Sequence record: MW349128.1
DNA from: Staphylococcus phage Machias
DNA length: 64,000 nucleotides
Reading direction: 5' to 3' (one strand)
Position numbers and translations under genes: made by a program. Of this stretch, positions 2,976-60,975 are shown piece after piece (position 1 is the stretch's first letter; each line of letters starts with the position of its first letter). The notes beneath the pieces are model-generated. The model was not told the origin of the DNA. It did not search any database and worked only from the letters and a program-made list of their open reading frames with translations.

Positions 2976-3166
2976 ACATGGCCGATTAAATAATAGTCGC
3001 TTTAAATTGAGAGATTTATAGAAAAGAATATTAATTGCTGAGAAGATTATTAAATTAATCAGCATCAAGTTAATACAATTTGTTCAACGACTAAATATAT
3101 TCTACCTTAAATGGTAATGATATAGTCTCGTCTATATGATAATATTTATATAGATTAAGATAAACG
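2976..3166 (+). mobile_element. group I intron, copy 2 (in tandem with copy 1), in the beta-prime gene
   Basis: P TTAATTGCTGAGAAG (3031), Q AATCAGCATC (3057), R GTTCAACGACTAAATA (3082), S GATATAGTCTCG (3118). The element ends before the in-frame YDGD exon. Boundaries are approximate. Confidence 0.6.
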
Positions 3167-49988: not shown

Positions 49989-50140
49989 ATTTATGATATA
50001 AATTAGTATTGTAACAAATTTTTATAGAAATTTATTTTTCTATAATTTATTCCTTTTTAAGTAATAAATTAGCGTATAGTTATAATGAAATTACTTATAC
50101 AAAGTTCTTTAATTTTATCCATATCCATTACTCCCTTATC

Positions 50141-50182
50141 CTAAAAATATATCCCAATACCTAAATTAATAGGTATTGGGAT
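50141..50182 (-). terminator. terminator downstream of the 50187-50900 gene
   Basis: ATCCCAATACCT/AGGTATTGGGAT 12-bp stem, with an A-run on the + strand giving a U-run for the - strand transcript. Confidence 0.6.
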
Positions 50183-50186
50183 TTTA

Positions 50187-50900
50187 TTATCCGAAAAATA
50201 ATTTTTTTCTATTAGAATTATAAATAGAGTTATTTTCCATTTTTTCAACTAATTCTCTTCTTTTTTCTCTAGCATCTCTTAAATCATCCATATTTAGATT
50301 TAATTCACCAAAAGTAGTTTGTAAATTTTGAAATCTACCTCTCATAGAGTATAATGACATTTGAACATCATATGAAGCTAATTCTAAAAAGTAATCATGC
50401 ATATTATTTGGTATTGAACCAAAATGTTTATCATGATAAGTATTTGCAATTATTAATAGATTAGTTGTACTCATAACAGATCCATTCATTATCTCTATTT
50501 TATTAGGATGAAGATATCTAAATGTAGATGGATTTAAATTAATAGCCATTAAATCTGCCATCATTTGAGAGTCAATAGGTGAACCCATCATAAAACCTGC
50601 ATAAGGACTCATACTACCAGCATACCCAGTTAAATTAGAAATATTGTTATTAGCACCAATCACTCTATTAATATTAACTATTGGATTTGGTGAATCAATA
50701 TAATAAACATTCTGAGTTCCTTCTACTTTATCTTCAGGCTTTACTATTATTCTTTCTTGTTTAGGATGAAATTTACTAAAAGTAGGAATTGTAAATCTTT
50801 CTACTGTTTTAATAATCTCATCAGGATTTAGTTCTAACTCATTAAACAGAAATCCTGTATCACGTTCTATATAATTAAGTACTTCTGTATTAGTTATCAT
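50187..50900 (-). CDS. hypothetical protein (morphogenesis-region gene)
   Basis: 237 aa, directly downstream of the protease gene, followed by a 12-bp-stem terminator. Confidence 0.5.
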   Translation of the reverse strand: MITNTEVLNYIERDTGFLFNELELNPDEIIKTVERFTIPTFSKFHPKQERIIVKPEDKVEGTQNVYYIDSPNPIVNINRVIGANNNISNLTGYAGSMSPYAGFMMGSPIDSQMMADLMAINLNPSTFRYLHPNKIEIMNGSVMSTTNLLIIANTYHDKHFGSIPNNMHDYFLELASYDVQMSLYSMRGRFQNLQTTFGELNLNMDDLRDAREKRRELVEKMENNSIYNSNRKKLFFG

Positions 50901-50923
50901 AAACTATATCACTTCCATACATA

Positions 50924-51252
50924 TTATTTAAAGTTTCTATAGAAATCATCAAGTCCATTAAGAACAGATTCTTCTAAGAAAACTTTAATAGTTTTATTAC
51001 TTTCTTTAATTGAAGCTAATTGAGATCCTTTATCGTAAATGATATTAGATTCATCAGCTTTATCAAATCCCATATCTTCAGCGATATATTTGATATTGTC
51101 TGAATTTTCTTTAATATAAGTTAAAACTTCTCTAGGAGAAAATTCTGTAACTTTACCGTTAGAAAACATATCAATTGATTCATTAACCATTTGTAAATCA
51201 CTAGTATTGTAATTATTATGATTCTCTGAAATTATATTTTGGATATAAGAAT
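50924..51252 (-). CDS. prohead protease (T4 gp21-like), exon 3
   Basis: The reading frame is open upstream of the annotated Met to about 51250 (IPSHQDSYIQNI...). It continues the protease past RLIC. Junctions are approximate. Confidence 0.45.
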
Positions 51253-51425
51253 CTTGATGTGATGGAATTACACGTTATCTTAACTATATGATTTTCATAT
51301 AGACGAGACTATATCTTCCTAATTTATATTAGGTAATATATTTAGTCGTTGAACGGAATTTAATCCGATGCTGATTATCTTAATAAAGATTTCCAGCAAT
51401 TAATATTATTTATACTAAGCAATAA
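51253..51425 (-). mobile_element. group I intron, copy 5 (minus orientation)
   Basis: Reverse-complement core elements: S AGACGAGACTATATC (51301), R TATTTAGTCGTTGAAC (51338), Q GATGCTGATT (51366), P CCAGCAATTAA (51393). Confidence 0.6.
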
Positions 51426-51624
51426 TTTTTTACCCAGTCATACGTACATCTTAGCTATATGGTTTCCATATAGACGAGACTATATCATACTCTTAGTAAG
51501 AGCGAATATATTTAGTCGTTGAACAACTTGTATTAAGTTGATGCTAATTGGCTTAATTAAACTTCTTAGCAATTAATATTCTTTTTCATTATATATCACT
51601 ATATAAAGCTGCTATAATTTAACA
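51426..51624 (-). mobile_element. group I intron, copy 4 (minus orientation)
   Basis: S (51471), R (51507), Q GATGCTAATT (51540), P CTTAGCAATTAATATT (51565). Its 5' leader TATAGTGATATATAATG matches copy 1. Confidence 0.6.
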
Positions 51625-51884
51625 GATTAATCTTAAAGGTTTAGTAACTTCTACTTCACCATTAGGTTTTCTTTCTATTTTACTAAAACCACGCATTGAG
51701 AAAGATACATCAGATTTTTGTCCAATTAAACCTTTCATATCCTTACCAGCTGATGTTTGAGCTGTTTCTACTTCTCCCATTAATTTATTACCATTCCACC
51801 AAGTTCTAGTGATAATATGAGAAATATTACGTTGATCAATATACATTTGACGTTTAGGTTCATCACTTAAAGGATGACCTGCAA
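51625..51884 (-). CDS. prohead protease (T4 gp21-like), exon 2
   Basis: AGHPLSDEPKRQMYIDQRNISHIITRTWWNGNKLMGEVE...DVSFSMRGFS resembles T4 gp21 ELNHP...HRITKLWWDGNTLMGEV...VSSRGMGS (catalytic His and Ser contexts). The gp21 comparison is from memory. Confidence 0.5.
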
Positions 51885-52033
51885 ATTATTATTCTTTATT
51901 ATTTTAATAAAGATTAGACTATATCATCTAGGTTATATATTTAGTCGTTGAACAACTTGTATTAAGTTGATGCTGATTACTTTAAATAAGATTTCAGCAA
52001 TTAATATAATTTAACGTGAGCCATTTTAACCTA
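51885..52033 (-). mobile_element. group I intron, copy 3 (minus orientation)
   Basis: S AGACTATATC (51915), R ATATTTAGTCGTTGAAC (51936), Q GATGCTGATT (51969), P TCAGCAATTAATA (51994). Confidence 0.6.
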
Positions 52034-52258
52034 AAACTCACCATAAAAAGTTCTTCTTGCTAATTTTTCTTGTACTACTGGACTATCTAAACCACTTTGG
52101 ATAACATCTTTACGATAAACACGACCATTACGGTTTTGTCTATCAGCTTCTTGTAACTCAGCAATGAATCTAACTGATTTATTATTATCTTGAACTACTT
52201 CTGGTTGAGAAGTTGTATTAGATTCATTAATAATGTAAGCTTTAATATCTTTAGACAT
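52034..52258 (-). CDS. prohead protease (T4 gp21-like), exon 1
   Basis: MSKDIKAY...NGRVYRKDVIQSGL...RRTFYGEF. The reading frame continues as AGHPL after the intron. Confidence 0.5.
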
Positions 52259-52345
52259 CTATTTATACTTCCTTTCAAATTTTGATTGTAAATTAAGAAT
52301 ATTTCTATGTTATTCTTCTGAATTTAACAATCTTTTATTAGATTA

Positions 52346-53383
52346 ATGAAATATATGATAGGAGGAAAATCTTTGAAAAGTTTTGAAGAAGTAAAAGATA
52401 TATTACTTAATATTAAAGAACAAACGGATGAAAATTCTTTTCCTAATGAAGCTTATGATTATTTAGTTGATATTGAGAAGTATGCTAATATTGATAGTTT
52501 TACGAATGATCAAATTAGAAAAATTGTAAAATATCTAGTAGGTATTAAAGATTCATTAGAAAGATACGAAATTGAAAATGAACAATCTGAAATGGCAATA
52601 AATATGGTTCTTCATAAAATAGAAACTCTTAAAGATAGATATAATACACTTTATATCAATAATCGTATTCCTAATAATGGTTATATTGATAGTTTATATA
52701 AAGAAGATTTTAGTTCAAATAAAAGTGCAGAATTTAATTTTAAACAATTAACTGTAGCTTTAGCTGAAAGTCCTGCTGGTTCTAAATTAGAAAGAAAAGC
52801 TGTTATTAACTTCTTAATGGAAGGTAGTATGAATTATCTTAATGAAGCTTATGATGATGACGATGATGAAGATTATCTTGATGGTCTTGATAGTAGCTTT
52901 GAAACCTCTAAAGAACCTAAAGTTGCTGAAAAGAATTTAAATAAATTAATTGGTTCTGTTAAGAAAGCTACTGCTTCATCTAAAAATATGGATGACAAAC
53001 AATTAGCTAAAGCAAATAGAATTCGTTTTGTAAGAGCTATTTTAACAGCAATAATCTTCTGTATTGGATTAGAAGTAAGTGCTGGTGTTATTGGTAAAGC
53101 TAAAACTGCTTTATTAGGATTATTGGTTGCTATTGTGTATAATAGTACTAAAAATAGTGAACTTAATAGATTAATTATTGTACTAGAAGAAAGAATTCAA
53201 TCATTAGAAAATAAAATCGATTCAACTGATAATGAACAAAAGAGAAAAGAATTAAGAATATTAAAATCAGACTTAGAAGGTCAATTGAAAAAAGCAAATT
53301 TCCAAAAGAAAGCTATAGATAAAACTAAAAATGCTATCTCTCGTGGAGATGTAAATGACAGTGGTAATGACTATGGATATTAA
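52346..53383 (+). CDS. hypothetical protein (scaffold or inner-body candidate by position)
   Basis: 345 aa, coiled-coil rich with a DDDDDEDY acidic patch and a central hydrophobic stretch. It lies upstream of the capsid gene. Confidence 0.5.
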   Translation: MKYMIGGKSLKSFEEVKDILLNIKEQTDENSFPNEAYDYLVDIEKYANIDSFTNDQIRKIVKYLVGIKDSLERYEIENEQSEMAINMVLHKIETLKDRYNTLYINNRIPNNGYIDSLYKEDFSSNKSAEFNFKQLTVALAESPAGSKLERKAVINFLMEGSMNYLNEAYDDDDDEDYLDGLDSSFETSKEPKVAEKNLNKLIGSVKKATASSKNMDDKQLAKANRIRFVRAILTAIIFCIGLEVSAGVIGKAKTALLGLLVAIVYNSTKNSELNRLIIVLEERIQSLENKIDSTDNEQKRKELRILKSDLEGQLKKANFQKKAIDKTKNAISRGDVNDSGNDYGY

Positions 53384-54044
53384 TAGAGATTTACTAACTG
53401 AATCAATAAATAAACTAATGAAACAAAATATTCTTAATGAAGCTGAAGGTGATGAAGATAATCAAGATCAGAATTCATTAGATGATACTGAATCAACTTC
53501 ATCAGAAGAAGAGAATAACGAAGAAACTGAAGAAGATAATTCTAATGATGATTCTAGTGATGATTCTACAGAAGATCAAGAAGAAAATGAAGATGAATTA
53601 GATAGTGATCCTGAACAACCTGAAGCTGAAGAAACTGACACAGATAATCCAGAAGAAACACCTGAAGAAACTCCAGAAGAAACACCTGAAGAACCCAAAG
53701 AAAGTAATTCAGATAAGTTTTTAAAATTACAAATATTTAATAAATTAGTTGAATTAAAAGATGTAATGGACAAATTTAACTACATTATTAATGACAGAAA
53801 TATGGAAAATTTTTCAGATTCAGAAAGAAACGATATGTTTGATATAACTGAATTAACTACAAAATCTCTTGATCAACTTAAAGATAATATAAATTTATTT
53901 AACAATAAATTTATAAATATTGTCGATGTAGATAAATCTGAGAAGTTATATAAAAAATTTGAAAATACTTACAAAGAAATATTTGACAATTATTTAAAAG
54001 AATACAATAAGTTAGAAAGTACAAAAAAGCGTAGTAAAAAGTAA
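53355..54044 (+). CDS. acidic scaffold-like protein
   Basis: 229 aa with an EETPEETPEETPEEP repeat. N-terminal half is highly acidic and C-terminal half is K-rich helical. Confidence 0.5.
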   Translation: MTVVMTMDINRDLLTESINKLMKQNILNEAEGDEDNQDQNSLDDTESTSSEEENNEETEEDNSNDDSSDDSTEDQEENEDELDSDPEQPEAEETDTDNPEETPEETPEETPEEPKESNSDKFLKLQIFNKLVELKDVMDKFNYIINDRNMENFSDSERNDMFDITELTTKSLDQLKDNINLFNNKFINIVDVDKSEKLYKKFENTYKEIFDNYLKEYNKLESTKKRSKK

Positions 54045-54228: not shown

Positions 54229-55824
54229 ATGTTGAGTGCAAATAGAATTAAAGATGAATTCTCTAAACTCTTAGAGGATATCGAACAAAATATCAACGAA
54301 CAGTACAAATTAAGTACAGTTGGTAATGACTTCGCTTCAATTGCTACTGATGACGTAGTATTTGAAAGTTATAAAGATCAATTATTAGAAGGTTTTGATG
54401 AAGAGGAGCAGCTTTCTTTAGAAAGTATGTTAGATAATACTCGTGAAGAAATCTTATTAGAGTCTTCAATGGGACCTATCCAACCTTATGCTTCATTATC
54501 TATGCCTATCTTAGTTAAACTTTGGGCTCGTTTAGCTTTAACTGAAGCTTTACCAACTCAAGTTGCTAATAAACCACAATTCACAGTGCCAATCTTAACA
54601 CCTTACGTTGTAGATGCTGATGGAAACAAACATGCATTACCTGAATCAATTAATAACACACCTGAAACTTTAGTAGGATTAGTTCCTCTTAAAGAAGAAG
54701 TTACAATTTCTGGTGGTAAAGTTGAAGCTTACGATTTATTCGATGGCTTAAAAGAAGGTAAAGAAGTTCGTAAAGGCATTGATCGTGTTGACCGTAAATT
54801 CAAAGTTGTAGAAGCTAAATGGAGCGATTCTTTTGATGTACGTACAAACGAAAAAGGATTTGTTGAATTAGGTTCTCAAGTTATTAAAATGGAAAATGAC
54901 TCTCTAATGGCAGAAGTTAAATACCCTACAAATGGTGACGGTGAAGTTGCTGTTGATACAGTATTAGGTAAAGTTGACGTTTCTAACGGTACTTTAGCTT
55001 TAGCTTCAACTTCTGGTAAATTAGAAGCAATTAAAATTAAAGGTTATGTAGCTTCTGAACAACATACTTCAGCTACTAACATTGAGCTTGGTTTAGATCG
55101 TAAAGATATCACTATCGATACAGCTCAACACATCGAGGCTACAGTACCTCTTGAAGTAATTCAAGATATGAAAGCTACTTATGATATCGATGGAGTTGCT
55201 CGTTTATCTGAAACAATGTCTCAATTATCTAGTCAAAAAGTTGACTTAGATATCATTGAATTCTTAGATCACGAATACGAAGAAACTGATGCTAAATATC
55301 ACTTCAGCTTCGATGTTTATCCACATAGTGATTACAGTGCTCACCCTAAAGATTGGTTAGAAGGTCTACGTGAAGTAATTGACCATACTACACAATCAAT
55401 GAAAAATGATTACAAACTTTACGATGTACAATTCGTTATCGTAGGTAACCCAGTTGACGTTCGTTTAATCCCTAACGTTTCTTGGACATTTAATGGTGGT
55501 ACTGAAGATTCTTACTCTAACGGAATCAAAATTAACTATTCATTAGGTGCTGCTTCAGGTACTGCTAACTACCGTATTATCGGTTCTGACTTAGTTCGTC
55601 AAGGTGAATTGACTATTATTGCAATTCCTCAACAAGACAACTATAAAACATTCATGTTCTACCCTTACACATTCAACGTTGTAAATGGTGGAGGATACTT
55701 GAATACTCGTAACCCTAATGTTCCTAACATGATGATGACTCGTAGATATACAGTTGAATCATTTGTTCCGATCATTGGTCGTATTACAATCAAAAACAAC
55801 AACGGTTCAGTATACGCTCGTTAA
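54229..55824 (+). CDS. major capsid protein (T4 gp23-like, HK97 fold), putative
   Basis: 531 aa. Codon usage is strongly biased toward GGT, GCT, CGT and AAC, the most expression-biased gene in the window. Loose matches to gp23: PILVKLWARLALTEALPTQVANKPQFTVPILTPYV against VMGMVRRAIPNLIAFDICGVQPMNSPTGQVFAL, and a C-terminal ...YPY...TRRY pattern. A strong terminator follows. Confidence 0.5.
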   Translation: MLSANRIKDEFSKLLEDIEQNINEQYKLSTVGNDFASIATDDVVFESYKDQLLEGFDEEEQLSLESMLDNTREEILLESSMGPIQPYASLSMPILVKLWARLALTEALPTQVANKPQFTVPILTPYVVDADGNKHALPESINNTPETLVGLVPLKEEVTISGGKVEAYDLFDGLKEGKEVRKGIDRVDRKFKVVEAKWSDSFDVRTNEKGFVELGSQVIKMENDSLMAEVKYPTNGDGEVAVDTVLGKVDVSNGTLALASTSGKLEAIKIKGYVASEQHTSATNIELGLDRKDITIDTAQHIEATVPLEVIQDMKATYDIDGVARLSETMSQLSSQKVDLDIIEFLDHEYEETDAKYHFSFDVYPHSDYSAHPKDWLEGLREVIDHTTQSMKNDYKLYDVQFVIVGNPVDVRLIPNVSWTFNGGTEDSYSNGIKINYSLGAASGTANYRIIGSDLVRQGELTIIAIPQQDNYKTFMFYPYTFNVVNGGGYLNTRNPNVPNMMMTRRYTVESFVPIIGRITIKNNNGSVYAR

Positions 55825-57092: not shown

Positions 57093-57737
57093 ATGAAGAC
57101 TATGGCTATAACAAAATTAAAGAAAAAAATTTATTACGATTATAAAACTAATAACGTAAGCTTTTTAAGAGTTGCTAAAGAACTTAAAGATAATAATATA
57201 CAAAATTATGGTCTACCATTAACTCTATATGATAAGAAATTAATTGGCGTTGATCCTTGGGATGAAGATTTAGATAATGAAATGAAAACTCGTGTTATTA
57301 GGGAAGCTAAACTTAATATATGGTTTTATTTAAGAGAAGTTATCAGAGTTCCAGTTCCAGGTGGTAAGGTAATGTATGAACTTCATAGAGGTAACTTAGC
57401 TATGACGTTTTGTATGCTGCATAATTTAGATACTGCAATAATGTTACCACGTCAGCACTATAAAACATATTCTGCAGTATGTTATTATTCATGGATTATG
57501 TTATTGGTAGGTAATAACTATACAATGTTATTTACACATAAATCATACTCGGACACTACTGAAAACCTTAAAAGATTAAAAAATCTATTCAAAGAGAAGT
57601 GTTTACCTGAATATGTATTAGCTAACTTTGGAGATAAAAATGATAGAGATAAAATTAATGAATTTTCTTTAGCAAGTAATAACAACACAATAAAAACAGT
57701 ATCACCTCCAACAAATGCTGAGAGTAAAATACGTGCT
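57093..57737 (+). CDS. terL: large terminase (T4 gp17-like), exon 1 (ATPase N-terminal part)
   Basis: Walker A-like LPRQHYKTYS against T4 SRQLGKT. IKTVSPPTNAESKIRA against T4 IGAYASSPDAVRGNSFA. The annotated stop at 57755 lies inside the intron leader. The exon end is approximate. Confidence 0.6.
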
Positions 57738-57884
57738 CTCATTAAACTCTATTAACTGCTGAAAAAGATACTAAACCAATCAGCATCAATCAAATTGATT
57801 GTTCAACGACTAAATATAGAGATAATTAATATTATAAGATATAGTCTAGTGTGTATGAATATCATACAATGTATTACGGCAAAC
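57738..57884 (+). mobile_element. group I intron, copy 6 (terL)
   Basis: P TTAACTGCTGAAAAAG (57752), Q AATCAGCATC (57778), R GTTCAACGACTAAATA (57801), S AAGATATAGTCTAG (57837). Confidence 0.6.
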
Positions 57885-59118
57885 AAAGCAGGAAGAGGTA
57901 GCACCGTATGTAGATGCAGTGCATAAAGATTTTTAATTGCTGGAAGACTAATAATGAAGTTAATCAGCATCACTTTAATTAGTGTTCAACGACTAAATAA
58001 AATCAATTTTAATAATTTTTACTGTTAACATTCCTTTATCAGTACGATAACGGAGGGATAAAATGCCTAAAGGTGTTAAAAGTAAAGAAAAATTCATAGA
58101 ACAAAAAAATAAAACTTTTAAAGAAATAAAAGATATCAATGGAGATAAATTTGAAATACTGGGAGAGTATAAAAATTCTAAAGAACCAATTAAATGTCAT
58201 TGTAATATATGTGATAGAGATTTTTTCTTACCTACTGAAAAACTAAGATTAAAAAGAAAATTCTGTAATAGAAAAGATTGTAGATATTCAGAAAAACCCA
58301 AGAATTCTAAAGGTAAAGAAACTTTTTTAATAGAATTAAAAGATAAGTTCGGATTTAATTATACTTATATTGAAGGATTCAATGGAATGAATAAAAAGTG
58401 TAGATTCCGTTGTGGAAAATGTGGAAATATAAGATATTTTGCAAAGCCTTCTACTCTAATGGATAAAAGAAAGAAGTATAATTCAGTAAACTGTAACAGA
58501 TGTATAAATAATGAAAATTATATCATATTAGATAGTCAAGAATTATCTAAAAAGACAACAGAAGAGTTTCAAGGTGAATTAGATATGATATTTGGATATA
58601 ATAAATTTAATGTGTTAACTGAATATACTAGGAGCAAAGATTATATCTATTTGAAGAGTAATGACTGTGGACACAAATTTAAAACGAGACCAGATGATAT
58701 ACTTAAAAGAAAAAGATGTAGTGTATGTTCTAAAAGTATAGGAGAAATTGCCATCATTGAATTACTTCAAGAGAATAATGTAGAATATGAGAATGAAGTT
58801 ACTTTTGAAGGATCTAGTTTTAGATTTGATTTTTATTTTAAAAAAATAAATACTGTAGTTGAAGTAGATGGAAAAGGTCATATAAAAGGTTATGGAAATT
58901 TCATTAATGATAAAAGAAACAAAAGCAAAAGAACACCTGAAGATATAAAAAAATTAGATAATGAAAAAGATGAATTTATAAGAAGCAAAGGAATAAATAT
59001 GATACGTCTCCCTTACCAGAATAGAATAAATGAAGAATTAATTATCCCTATGAAAAAATTATTAAAATTATGATATAGTCTGATCTGCATGGATTATCAT
59101 GTAGTTTAACGTAAATGA
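57885..59118 (+). mobile_element. group I intron, copy 7 (terL), carrying a homing endonuclease ORF in P8
   Basis: P TTAATTGCTGG (57934), Q AATCAGCATC (57962), R GTTCAACGACTAAATA (57985). The HEG ORF spans 58063-59073. S TGATATAGTCTGA (59071) overlaps the HEG stop codon. P9 hairpin CTGCATG/CATGTAG follows. Confidence 0.6.
58063..59073 (+). CDS. intron-encoded homing endonuclease, EDxHD/Vsr-like (PD-(D/E)xK) with tandem CxxC zinc ribbons
   Basis: 336 aa with GGAGGG RBS. Three C-x2-C...C-x2-C pairs. C-terminal VVEVDGKGHIKGY...MIRLPY fits the E-x-D-G-x-x-H Vsr/DUF559-like catalytic core (compare I-Bth0305I). Confidence 0.5.
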   Translation: MPKGVKSKEKFIEQKNKTFKEIKDINGDKFEILGEYKNSKEPIKCHCNICDRDFFLPTEKLRLKRKFCNRKDCRYSEKPKNSKGKETFLIELKDKFGFNYTYIEGFNGMNKKCRFRCGKCGNIRYFAKPSTLMDKRKKYNSVNCNRCINNENYIILDSQELSKKTTEEFQGELDMIFGYNKFNVLTEYTRSKDYIYLKSNDCGHKFKTRPDDILKRKRCSVCSKSIGEIAIIELLQENNVEYENEVTFEGSSFRFDFYFKKINTVVEVDGKGHIKGYGNFINDKRNKSKRTPEDIKKLDNEKDEFIRSKGINMIRLPYQNRINEELIIPMKKLLKL

Positions 59119-59202
59119 CCTATGGTTTGGCTTGATGAGTGGGCGTTTATACCGCATAATCAAGTAATGTTTGAAGCGATGAGTAAAAAGGCTCCATCTT
59201 TA
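59119..59202 (+). CDS. terL: terL micro-exon (Walker B)
   Basis: (P)MVWLDEWAFIPHNQVMFEAMSKKAPSL aligns to T4 gp17 [23 protein letters not shown]. An in-frame TGA lies immediately upstream and a TAG at the end. Boundaries are approximate. Confidence 0.55.
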
Positions 59203-59355
59203 TAGAAATATAGATGATGAATAATATTAACTGCTGAAAAGTTTAAAAACCAATCAGCATCATTAAATAATGTTCAACGACTAAATTTATTAAATCTTAA
59301 AAAGATTATGATATAGTCTGATCTGCATGGATTATCATGCAGCTAACATAAATGA
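59203..59355 (+). mobile_element. group I intron, copy 8 (terL)
   Basis: P TTAACTGCTGAAAAG (59227), Q AATCAGCATC (59252), R GTTCAACGACTAAAT (59272), S TGATATAGTCTGA (59309), P9 CTGCATGGATTATCATGCAG. Confidence 0.6.
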
Positions 59356-59442
59356 CCAGCAATAAGTACAGCTTCAAGAATTGCAAAAGAAAATGGTTCT
59401 CCTTATGGACTTCTTATCACAACTACACCTAAAATGACTGGG
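59356..59442 (+). CDS. terL: terL micro-exon (ATPase motif III region)
   Basis: TAISTASRIAKENGSPYGLLITTTPKMTG against T4 ISSGRRSKIIITTTPNGLN. It is bounded by in-frame stops. Confidence 0.55.
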
Positions 59443-60975
59443 TGAAGATAAATTAAAATTTATCTTAAGGACTTTATTAATTGCTGAAAGGTCCTTAGAG
59501 CTTAATGAGCTACAACGTGACTGGCAACAGTGAGCGTGATATGCTTAAAAATCATTAAGATTGGAAAATCAGCAGCTAATTTTCAATTTAATAAATTATT
59601 AAATCAATAATGAACAACTCTTTATACAAAAGATGTAGGAGTTGGTAATTTTGGATTTTTATGAAAAATTAAATAAAAAATTTGATAACAGTATAATAAC
59701 AAAAGAAAAATATATAAACGGCAATGAAAAGATTAAATTCTATTGTAAAAATTGTAAAAATTATTTTTATTCTAAACCTAGAAAAATTATTGAATCATCT
59801 TATAAATCATGTCATTTATGTAGGAAAAGGGAAAAAGAAAATATATTTAGGAATAATCTCATTAATATGATAAATAAAGAAATATATGAAATTATTGAAA
59901 TGAAAGATCCTATAAAAAATAATGAAAAATTTTCTTTAAAACATAAAGAATGTGGAAATATCTTTTCTATATCAGTGAGTAATTTTAAAAAAGGAAGAAA
60001 ATGCCCATATTGCTCAAATAAGCCTATGAAAAGGGATCAAAATTTCTTTTTAGAAAAAATAAATAATATTGATTCAAGTTTCTTAAAAGAATATGAATTA
60101 AAAAGCAATTATATAAGCGTTAACGAAAATATTAAAATTAAACATAAAGAATGTGGAAATATCTTTAATACTACCCCTAATAGAATTTATAGAGGTAATA
60201 GATGTAGTATGTGTTCACATAAATCTGATAAATATAATTTTAAAGAGGTAAAGAGTATAATAGAAAAAGATGGAAAATTTAAACTTTTATCTAATAATTA
60301 TATAAATAATAAATATAAATTAAAAATAAAATGTCTTAACTGTGGTAATATACAAGAGAAAAGTTTAGTTACATTTCAAGATAAAAGAAATAGAAAATGT
60401 ATATGTGAAAAATATTCTTTACCAATTCGTTATATAACAAATTTTTTAATAGATAAAAATATAAATTTTGAGCTAGAAAAAAGATTTGATAATTGTAGAA
60501 ATATTAGACCTTTACCCTTCGATATTTTTATAAATGATTTTAATATTCTAATTGAATATGATGGGGAACAACATTTTAAACCAATATATGGTATAGAAAA
60601 ACTCAATAAAACTAAAATAAATGATGAAATAAAAAATAATTTTTGTAATAAAGAAGGAATAGAATTAATTAGAATAAACTGTTATGATAATTATGAAGAT
60701 AAAATTGAAAATTTAGTTCAACGACTATCGAAAGTTGAGTATACATCGTGAGGATATATACAATATAAATGAGTAGAGTACAGCCAAGCGGTTAGTTTTT
60801 AAGTGATATTAGCTTAATATAATTCTATTAAATGGAAACATAAAGACGTGTATATTAACACATATACGTAAGATATAGTCTCAACGTTTAGGGAAAACCT
60901 AAAGAAGTTCATAAGAGAACTGGTATAGATTAGCGATCTATATTGAAGATTTTGAGTACTCTCGACACATCTCAA
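59443..60975 (+). mobile_element. group I intron, copy 9 (terL), carrying a second homing endonuclease ORF
   Basis: P TTAATTGCTGAAAGG (59477), Q AAATCAGCAGC (59567), HEG 59642-60751, S AAGATATAGTCTC (60870). The R element was not confidently located. The 3' end is set where the T4-aligned exon (GQFFFQQMNEAAQ against LNHFYDIWTAA) starts. Confidence 0.5.
59642..60751 (+). CDS. intron-encoded homing endonuclease, EDxHD/Vsr-like, paralog of 58063-59073
   Basis: 369 aa with TTG start after AGGAG. Repeated KHKECGNIF...C.YC zinc-ribbon units. C-terminal ILIEYDGEQHFKP...LIRIN has the E-x-D-G-x-x-H core. Confidence 0.5.
   Translation: MVILDFYEKLNKKFDNSIITKEKYINGNEKIKFYCKNCKNYFYSKPRKIIESSYKSCHLCRKREKENIFRNNLINMINKEIYEIIEMKDPIKNNEKFSLKHKECGNIFSISVSNFKKGRKCPYCSNKPMKRDQNFFLEKINNIDSSFLKEYELKSNYISVNENIKIKHKECGNIFNTTPNRIYRGNRCSMCSHKSDKYNFKEVKSIIEKDGKFKLLSNNYINNKYKLKIKCLNCGNIQEKSLVTFQDKRNRKCICEKYSLPIRYITNFLIDKNINFELEKRFDNCRNIRPLPFDIFINDFNILIEYDGEQHFKPIYGIEKLNKTKINDEIKNNFCNKEGIELIRINCYDNYEDKIENLVQRLSKVEYTS

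Follow-up and report, generated by a model that had tools for sequence, protein, structure and literature searches.

A single prohead protease gene with three group I introns

In the 64,000-nucleotide (nt) stretch of Staphylococcus phage Machias that we analyzed (record MW349128.1; hereafter, the window), the prohead protease gene lies on the minus strand, at 52258..50924, inside the head-morphogenesis module. This locus is very probably one single gene holding three compact group I introns without open reading frames (ORFs). When the three introns are taken out, the 1,335-nt precursor becomes an ORF of 843 nt, which encodes a 280-amino acid (aa) protein that is 93-94% identical to the SA1 and PALS_2 proteins. 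The intervening sequences are group I introns, their junctions are fixed by orthologues, the product belongs to the Peptidase_S77 family, and all the exons are under purifying selection. We further infer that the introns could splice autonomously and that the product would be active as a protease.

The junctions were set by alignment to the uninterrupted 843-nt genes of the phages SA1 and PALS_2; tblastn found uninterrupted 280-aa orthologues, in one piece and with 93-94% identity, in SA1, PALS_2, and UFV_DC4. All the following features are on the minus strand. Exon 1 (52258-52036, 223 nt) includes codons 1-74 and the first base of Ser75, ends in ...GGTGAGT, and is colinear with nt 1-223 of SA1 and PALS_2. 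Intron 1 (52035-51882, 154 nt) interrupts the Ser75 codon, two codons before His77. Exon 2 (51881-51622, 260 nt) is colinear with nt 224-483 of SA1 and runs from the rest of Ser75 to Cys161, carrying the codons of His77 (51876-51874) and Ser136 (51699-51697). It is followed by intron 2 (51621-51443, 179 nt) and by micro-exon 3 (51442-51432), an 11-nt exon with sequence TATGACTGGGT, which encodes Tyr162, Asp163 (codon 51439-51437), Trp164, and the first two bases of Val165. After intron 3 (51431-51273, 159 nt), exon 4 (51272-50924, 349 nt including the stop) goes from the last base of Val165 to Lys280; it starts with ...VIPSHQDS, is colinear with nt 495-843 of SA1, and supplies the last part of the protease fold together with a helical C-terminal region of about 110 aa. 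No ORF of note was found within the three introns.

The spliced product reads ...YGE/SGHP...RLIC/YDWV/VIPSHQDS... (here and below, a slash marks a splice junction). In their short form, the three junctions are GAGT/CAGG, CTGT/TATG, and GGGT/TGTA, and the deduced spliced sequences are GGTGAGT/CAGGTCAT and AATCTGT/TATGACTGGGT/TGTAATTCC, with ...TFYGESGHPLSDEPK and ...LICYDWVVIPSHQDSYIQNIISENHNNYNTSDLQMVNESIDMFSNGK as the predicted peptides spanning them. At the position of micro-exon 3, SA1 and PALS_2 read TGT TAT GAT TGG GT(G/A) GT without a break and encode RLICYDWVVIPSHQDS. The excision that restores the continuous gene is a computed one, colinear with SA1 and PALS_2, and the same rule also gives 843 nt in the phages AH12, Madawaska, PB50, and LY01, that is, in five phages with the window.

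The first-pass annotation of this DNA, made from the sequence alone, had proposed three minus-strand coding pieces parted by three group I intron cores, and both are found about where it had put them. The orthologue alignment moved the proposed intron boundaries (52033-51885, 51624-51426, and 51425-51253) to those given above. As a consequence of the same alignment, introns 2 and 3 do not adjoin each other, contrary to what had been claimed, since the 11-nt exon lies between them; the joins GEF/AGHP and RLIC/IPSHQDS, the latter of which drops YDWV with its invariant Asp, are replaced by YGE/SGHP and RLIC/YDWV/VIPSHQDS; and the product is 280 aa long instead of about 260. Two other junction candidates were ruled out. 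An exon 1 ending in ...GEF plus T (281 aa) is at odds with SA1 and PALS_2, which read YGESGHP in 843 nt, and the splice site after GAGU gives a P1 of 6 base pairs (bp). A 23-nt middle exon, with intron 2 ending in CAUAUAG, would encode LRCTYDWV, where the orthologues read LICYDWV.

The predicted spliced product is a T4 gp21-type protease

The 280-aa product matches Peptidase_S77 (PF03420) with 36.3 bits, against a cut-off of 27, over residues 37-179, an interval that crosses all three junctions. Searched singly, the ORF pieces gave no match, 17.9 bits, and no match, none of them reaching the cut-off. The search of a conceptually spliced product, which had been suggested as a check of the protease identity, is passed also by the join proposed at that time (29.7 bits). 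A match to the PHROG head maturation protease (2e-23) was scored on the 281-aa draft join, which has one extra residue. Among the homologues found, 13 out of 15 carry PF03420, and several of them list PF20034 too. The score for Peptidase_S80, the phiKZ gp175-type family, was 21.4 bits, under its cut-off of 23.4: it is a related family, but the protein is not placed there. Of the earlier label "T4 gp21 / phiKZ gp175-like", it is the gp21 half that holds.

The residues H77, S136, and D163 are invariant in 16 homologues, as is V165, while W164 is nearly so. The family profile matched T4 gp21 (5JBL) with an E-value of 9.8e-10, and in this alignment H77 and S136 are matched by alanines, those of GELNAP and GVASRG, respectively, and D163 by the D of GVDAVWGPS; we take both 5JBL alanines to be catalytic residues mutated in the protein that was crystallised. 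In gp21, the triad consists of His, Ser, and Asp (PMC5694885), and the catalytic triad predicted for the phage protein occupies the same positions. Using the AlphaFold model of the PALS_2 orthologue, the top Foldseek matches were the 5JBL chains (E-value 1.8e-10, target TM score 0.81), with the next match at an E-value above 0.2. The block-mean model confidence (predicted local distance difference test, pLDDT) is about 70-95 over residues 21-160 and lower in the C-terminal part. The model thus predicts a fold like that of gp21 and herpesvirus assemblin. The prohead protease identity proposed by the first-pass annotation is then sustained by the S77 score and by the profile and fold matches to gp21. 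Fold, family hidden Markov model, aligned His/Ser/Asp positions, and location in the head module all agree with T4 gp21; on the other hand, the identity is only about 19%, and the present protein has about 110 extra aa at the C-terminus. To our knowledge, the T4 gp21 gene has no introns.

Core motifs, splice-site pairings, and covariation

A 2.2-kb Rfam scan with laxer filters returned three Intron_gpI (RF00028) matches on the minus strand: 51631-51455 for intron 2 (45.5 bits, E-value 7.5e-10), 51441-51284 for intron 3 (41.6 bits, 1.1e-8), and 52057-51896 for intron 1 (32.6 bits, 5.6e-6, the lowest of the three). In cmscan, all three introns align to the full model (positions 1-253). Each of the three copies holds the classical P, Q, R, and S elements (AAUUGCUG, AAUCAGCA, GUUCAACGACUAAAU, and GAUAUAGUC), and the R element GTTCAACGACTAAATAT occurs eight times in the window versus 0.44 expected by chance.

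The splice-site rules of group I introns are also respected. In intron 1, the guide GCUCAC (52021-52016) pairs with the exon sequence GUGAGU; in intron 2, UAGCAG (51614-51609) pairs with CUGU/UA; in intron 3, GCUUAG (51420-51415) pairs with CUGGGU. In all three P1 helices a U·G pair sits exactly at the junction that the orthologue alignment had fixed independently, and every intron ends with a G (...AAUUUG, ...UGUACG, and ...AUAACG). The 3' exons can in addition form a P10 with the nucleotides directly 5' of the guide, of 5 bp in intron 2, where the P10 guide UUAUA is matched by the first five bases of micro-exon 3, and of 6 bp in intron 3. At the same site, intron 2 of LY01 shows a compensatory P10 change, from UAU to UAC in the exon and from AUA to GUA in the guide.

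For covariation, we aligned 14 members of the family, of which 10 come from protease genes (five phages) and four from elsewhere in this window, and tested a hand-drawn P3-P9 structure that includes the P3/P7 pseudoknot. The paired cells were 95.4%, versus 78.6% in shuffled alignments, and none of the 500 shuffles reached the observed value; sliding the 3' partners by one to three columns left 30-43% of the cells paired. Compensatory changes were found in 21/39 pairs, distributed over P3, P4, P5, P6, P8, and P9, and P7 is invariant among the members. RNAalifold alone recovers P4, P5, P6, P7, and P9. On the basis of core motifs, covariation, splice-site rules, and exact in-frame ORF restoration, we assign the three intervening sequences to the group I introns.

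Helix content and the autonomy of splicing

Each intron is predicted to fold into a group I core, with P3-P7 and P9 in all of them. Intron 2 has all the helices from P1 to P9; intron 3 lacks P2 and has P3-P9, including P8; intron 1 lacks both P2 and P8. The guide sequence would pair with the last 4-6 exon bases, forming the U·G wobble at the 5' splice site; an external guanosine would cleave there, and the freed 3'-OH of the exon would then attack past the terminal G of the intron. The ligated mRNA would thus carry the 843-nt ORF of the 280-aa Peptidase_S77 serine protease with the predicted triad His77/Ser136/Asp163. In-frame stops are present 5 nt (TAG), 3 nt (TAA), and 22 nt into introns 1, 2, and 3, respectively, and, by analogy with what is known of phage introns, would keep ribosomes out of the ribozyme cores.

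The P8 helix normally belongs to the group I core, and its pairs covary in the family; intron 1 is the only one of the three in which it was not found. There, P8 is reduced to the 5-nt sequence CCUAG, which leaves 13 alignment columns empty where the PB50 intron of this site has sequence, and CCUAG also stands in place of P8 in intron 1 of AH12, Madawaska, and LY01. In the PB50 intron, a P8 hairpin is retained (about 5-6 bp, read by eye) and the 3' half is different, which suggests recombination between intron copies. Intron 1 is thus an atypical, reduced group I member. As for size, the tRNA-Ile intron of Azoarcus, a minimal group I ribozyme, is about 205 nt long. The present introns likewise consist of a compact core without large peripheral domains, but at 146-184 nt they are shorter, and intron 1 additionally has neither P2 nor P8; their activity is a predicted one.

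Several points weigh against three self-sufficient introns in a protease gene. None of the three Rfam scores reaches the gathering score of 50, which is an operational check and not a defining property, and Rfam scans of the whole 64-kb window found no intron at either the gathering or the E-value threshold. Since these scans were empty at both thresholds, standard pipelines would miss the introns; the low scores agree with the lack of peripheral helices. The G+C content of the introns is very low (22-27%), so their individual helices are thermodynamically weak, and the unaided self-splicing of intron 1 is uncertain because it has no P2 and no P8. Moreover, the AlphaFold model was built from the 94%-identical PALS_2 orthologue and not from the product of the window, and that splicing takes place in vivo is, for this phage, something that we infer.

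A variant of the splicing model takes these points into account: the introns would be group I-derived but not autonomous, and at least intron 1 would need a phage or host protein, or a neighbor intron. We consider this possible, though clearly not the likelier case. The replacement of P8 by CCUAG in four phages when the PB50 copy keeps the helix, the lowest Rfam score of the three, and a G+C content of 22% speak for it in intron 1. However, the P8-less intron 1 persists in an essential single-copy gene of four independently isolated viable phages. Furthermore, between the window and Madawaska its P5 hairpin was replaced (from CUU...AAG to AGAU...AUCU) with the pairing kept, as read by eye, and one P9 pair became U·G; no cofactor was identified by this analysis.

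Micro-exon 3 between two predicted ribozymes

Every base of micro-exon 3 is used by the predicted pairings of the flanking introns: bases 1-5 form the P10 of intron 2, and bases 6-11 form the P1 of intron 3. A similar situation occurs in LY01 (locus 2138-2508), where, in the 6-nt exon TACGAT, one base belongs both to the P10 of the intron before it and to the P1 of the intron after it. On a tentative reading, because all the bases of the 11-nt and 6-nt micro-exons serve P10 or P1, splicing by the two ribozymes would require an order or cooperation.

Regulated exon skipping could be imagined in such an arrangement: some transcripts would join exon 2 directly to exon 4 and give a shortened protein that lacks Asp163, which could serve, for instance, to hold the protease in an inactive state or to tune its dose. 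Skipping of micro-exon 3 causes a frameshift, and the resulting product stops after 179 residues. Skipping is described for the 23-nt exon of Twort orf142 and the 34-nt exon of the Coxiella 23S rRNA (PMC10136302), and, when paired by hand, the P10 guide UUAUA of intron 2 could also accept the start of exon 4 (UGUAA). Nevertheless, the guides of introns 2 and 3 differ, and differentiated splice-site recognition elements suppress skipping (PMC10136302); again by hand pairing, the intron 3 guide GCUUAG has no match to the end of exon 2. We regard such skipping as improbable.

Far less credible is the proposal that no exon separates introns 2 and 3, which would make up a tandem unit or twintron and leave RLIC/IPSHQDS in the mature protein: the two cores are just 11 nt apart and that join does score 29.7 bits, but the uninterrupted orthologues encode the four residues that it drops, D163 and V165 are invariant and W164 nearly so, the join with YDWV scores higher and extends the S77 match to residue 179, the 11 nt provide the U·G-containing P1 of intron 3 and the 5-bp P10 of intron 2, and Madawaska and PB50 hold a single intron inside this same stretch (TACGAT/TGGG).

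Selection on the exons and intron occupancy among related phages

Compared with SA1, PALS_2, Madawaska, and LY01, which differ in intron content, the ratio of nonsynonymous to synonymous substitution rates (dN/dS) of the exons ranges from 0.03 to 0.18; it is 0.03 for exon 1 versus SA1 and 0.09-0.16 for exon 4. The gene is single-copy in AH12 and PB50 (tblastn, one place per record), and the UFV_DC4 orthologue was detected in virions by liquid chromatography-mass spectrometry. Together with the exact restoration of 843 nt, these data make a pseudogene very unlikely. The first-pass annotation had also stated that the pieces have no independent starts. In fact, in-frame ATGs are present on the minus strand at 51846 (piece 2) and 51190 (piece 4); the claim is true in a loose sense only. 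Read by eye, neither of them is preceded by a Shine-Dalgarno-like sequence, unlike the start at 52258, where such a sequence (AAGGAAG, 52268..52274, minus strand) lies 9 nt upstream of the ATG. Read from the sequence, it is the putative ribosome-binding site, and the equivalent site is annotated in the Madawaska and MarsHill records. Because of these in-frame ATGs, the AH12 annotators called three separate coding sequences (CDSs).

We can therefore practically dismiss a decaying pseudogene or three separate small genes, with the repeats as non-splicing remnants: pieces were called as separate CDSs by the annotators of AH12 and PB50 and two of them have internal ATGs, but all exons show low dN/dS with no frameshift or stop, intron removal gives exactly 843 nt in five phages, the gene is single-copy and phage head maturation generally requires such a protease, no lone piece reaches the S77 cut-off, and the internal ATGs have no Shine-Dalgarno-like sequence.

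Under the reading of one protease gene with three introns, its relatives differ in the introns they hold. The gene has no introns in SA1, PALS_2, and UFV_DC4. In MarsHill and S6 it contains one larger intron with a LAGLIDADG ORF at G/ESGHP, 4 nt upstream of the insertion site of intron 1 (site 1). Two introns, at site 1 and GAT/TGG, are found in Madawaska and PB50, and three in LY01, at site 1, TGT/TAC, and GAT/TGG. The window and AH12 share the three-intron arrangement with the 11-nt exon (site 1, TGT/TAT, and GGGT/TGT), and intron 3 is identical in AH12. The site-1 intron is thus located at the same place in AH12, Madawaska, LY01, and PB50. The gene of the Bacillus phage AR9 (g114) has one intron of the larger type at GEAG/HPLSD, 5 nt downstream of site 1.

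In total, five insertion sites lie beside the His or Asp codons in the Staphylococcus relatives, and a sixth in AR9: the His and Asp codons of the protease are recurrent intron targets. The Ser75 codon is TCA in the alleles with an intron at or near site 1 (window, Madawaska, LY01, PB50, MarsHill, and S6) and AGT in SA1 and PALS_2, a switch within the six-fold-degenerate serine codons that coincides with intron presence and would fit a transfer of the intron along with the exon sequence beside it. Used as a blastn query, intron 2 matched 22 places in AH12, 31 in LY01, 16 in PB50, 10 in Madawaska, and 8 in MarsHill, with no match in S6, PALS_2, UFV_DC4, and SA1. The genes of the MarsHill-like phages include one for an RNA-directed DNA polymerase (Korn et al., bioRxiv 10.1101/2020.12.14.422802); as pure speculation, this reverse transcriptase might offer ORF-less introns a reverse-splicing route.

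Among the metagenomic homologues, several are called from ME(A/S)GHPLS, and one stops directly after YDWV. In one metagenomic locus (L012), the 3' half of a MarsHill-type intron, ending in ...AATG/GAATCCGGACATCC, was recognized by eye. Rfam gave no matches on three metagenomic loci with N- or C-terminally truncated homologues.

Genomic context and other introns of the window

The megablast matches of region 50000-53500 are all Staphylococcus jumbo phages. The closest is AH12, with 97.6% identity over the whole 3.5-kb query, followed by PB50 with 95.8% identity over 59% of the query; LY01, Madawaska, MarsHill, PALS_2, UFV_DC4, S6, and SA1 are 83-86% identical. The window thus belongs to a PBS1/AR9-like Staphylococcus jumbo phage, a group described by Korn et al. 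(bioRxiv 10.1101/2020.12.14.422802). Downstream of the protease gene, on the minus strand, lies a virion structural protein gene (50187-50900); the other neighbors in the head module are the major head protein gene (54229-55824) and the first exon of terL, which starts at 57093.

About nine group I introns are present in the window, none of which was detected by the whole-window Rfam scans. In the RNA polymerase beta' gene (start 1701, plus strand), two compact introns (2799-2980 and 2987-3166) flank the 6-nt micro-exon GCCGAT (2981-2986), which encodes the Ala-Asp of the catalytic ADYDGD motif; the uninterrupted PALS_2 orthologue reads ...AGMGADYDGDTLNIIALF. By comparison with this orthologue, the earlier description of the pair as directly tandem is superseded, with the GCCGAT exon between the two introns. 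A 5' splice site of the first intron after 2807 was also discarded, since homology with PALS_2 puts it after 2798.

The terL region (57726-59640, plus strand) holds at least four introns, whose boundaries are placed by motifs only: one of 146 nt (57726-57871), one containing a 336-aa ORF (58063-59073) at about 57925-59083, one of 155 nt (59200-59354), and, at about 59440-59640, one that has a larger P5 and is of another type, similar to the intron of the AR9 protease gene.

Known precedents and implications

The split of this gene is itself known and published in sister phages. Korn et al. (bioRxiv 10.1101/2020.12.14.422802) count the prohead scaffold/protease gene among those that introns disrupt in MarsHill, Madawaska, and Machias, with a similar set in AR9, and GenBank records give it as a join() of three pieces in Madawaska (MW349129), two in MarsHill (MW248466), and two in AR9 (g114, KU878088). 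Madawaska has, in the same gene and within the same clade, essentially the same group I intron, of 155 nt, at GAGT/CAGG. In AH12, the nearest relative, the split is unannotated in its record.

Short exons between group I introns have precedents too. Twort orf142 is described as a gene that holds three group I introns and in which a 23-nt exon may be skipped (PMC3073962 and PMC10136302; originally Landthaler & Shub 1999). As here, the host genome is that of a Staphylococcus phage, and two similar introns out of three flank a very short exon. In contrast, the Twort gene is a different one, its exon measures 23 nt versus 11 (6 in LY01 and in the beta' gene of the window), its introns are of subgroup IA2, and splicing and skipping were shown experimentally, where in our case they are read from sequence. 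In the 23S rRNA of Coxiella burnetii, two group I introns flank a 34-nt exon (Hicks et al. 2011, as cited in PMC10136302); this is an rRNA gene, with introns of different subgroups and an exon three times longer than micro-exon 3. In fungal mitochondria, tandem group I introns and mini-exons are also described, such as the 18-nt inter-intron sequence of Ophiostoma cob-201 (PMC12308204). There, as here, neighboring introns are parted by a very short exon or pseudo-exon, but the introns are organellar, large, and ORF-bearing, and the status of the exon is ambiguous, whereas the orthologues prove that the 11 nt of the phage gene are coding. In the literature that we found, the three-intron allele, the 11- and 6-nt micro-exons at catalytic codons, the 146-184 nt size, and the P8-less intron are undescribed.

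A practical consequence concerns annotation, as routine procedures break an essential gene into "hypothetical proteins" or mislabel its pieces, and the corrected junctions give the true 280-aa protease. In the PB50 record (locus 1501-2687), exon 1 is labeled "terminase large subunit" and exon 2 "homing endonuclease"; in that of AH12 (locus 1501-2835), the three pieces are all "hypothetical protein".

Taken together, the observations lend themselves to a broader reading, which we advance only tentatively: that these introns (146-184 nt) could be among the smallest natural group I ribozymes, self-splicing even without P2 or P8; that the family may have spread into codons of catalytic motifs (the protease His and Asp, and ADYDGD in beta'); and that the introns flanking micro-exons would be spliced in order or cooperatively. 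At this locus, the codons hit by group I introns are the most conserved ones of an enzyme, and it provides natural test cases for the minimal size of a group I ribozyme and for two ribozymes that share an exon of 6-11 nt.

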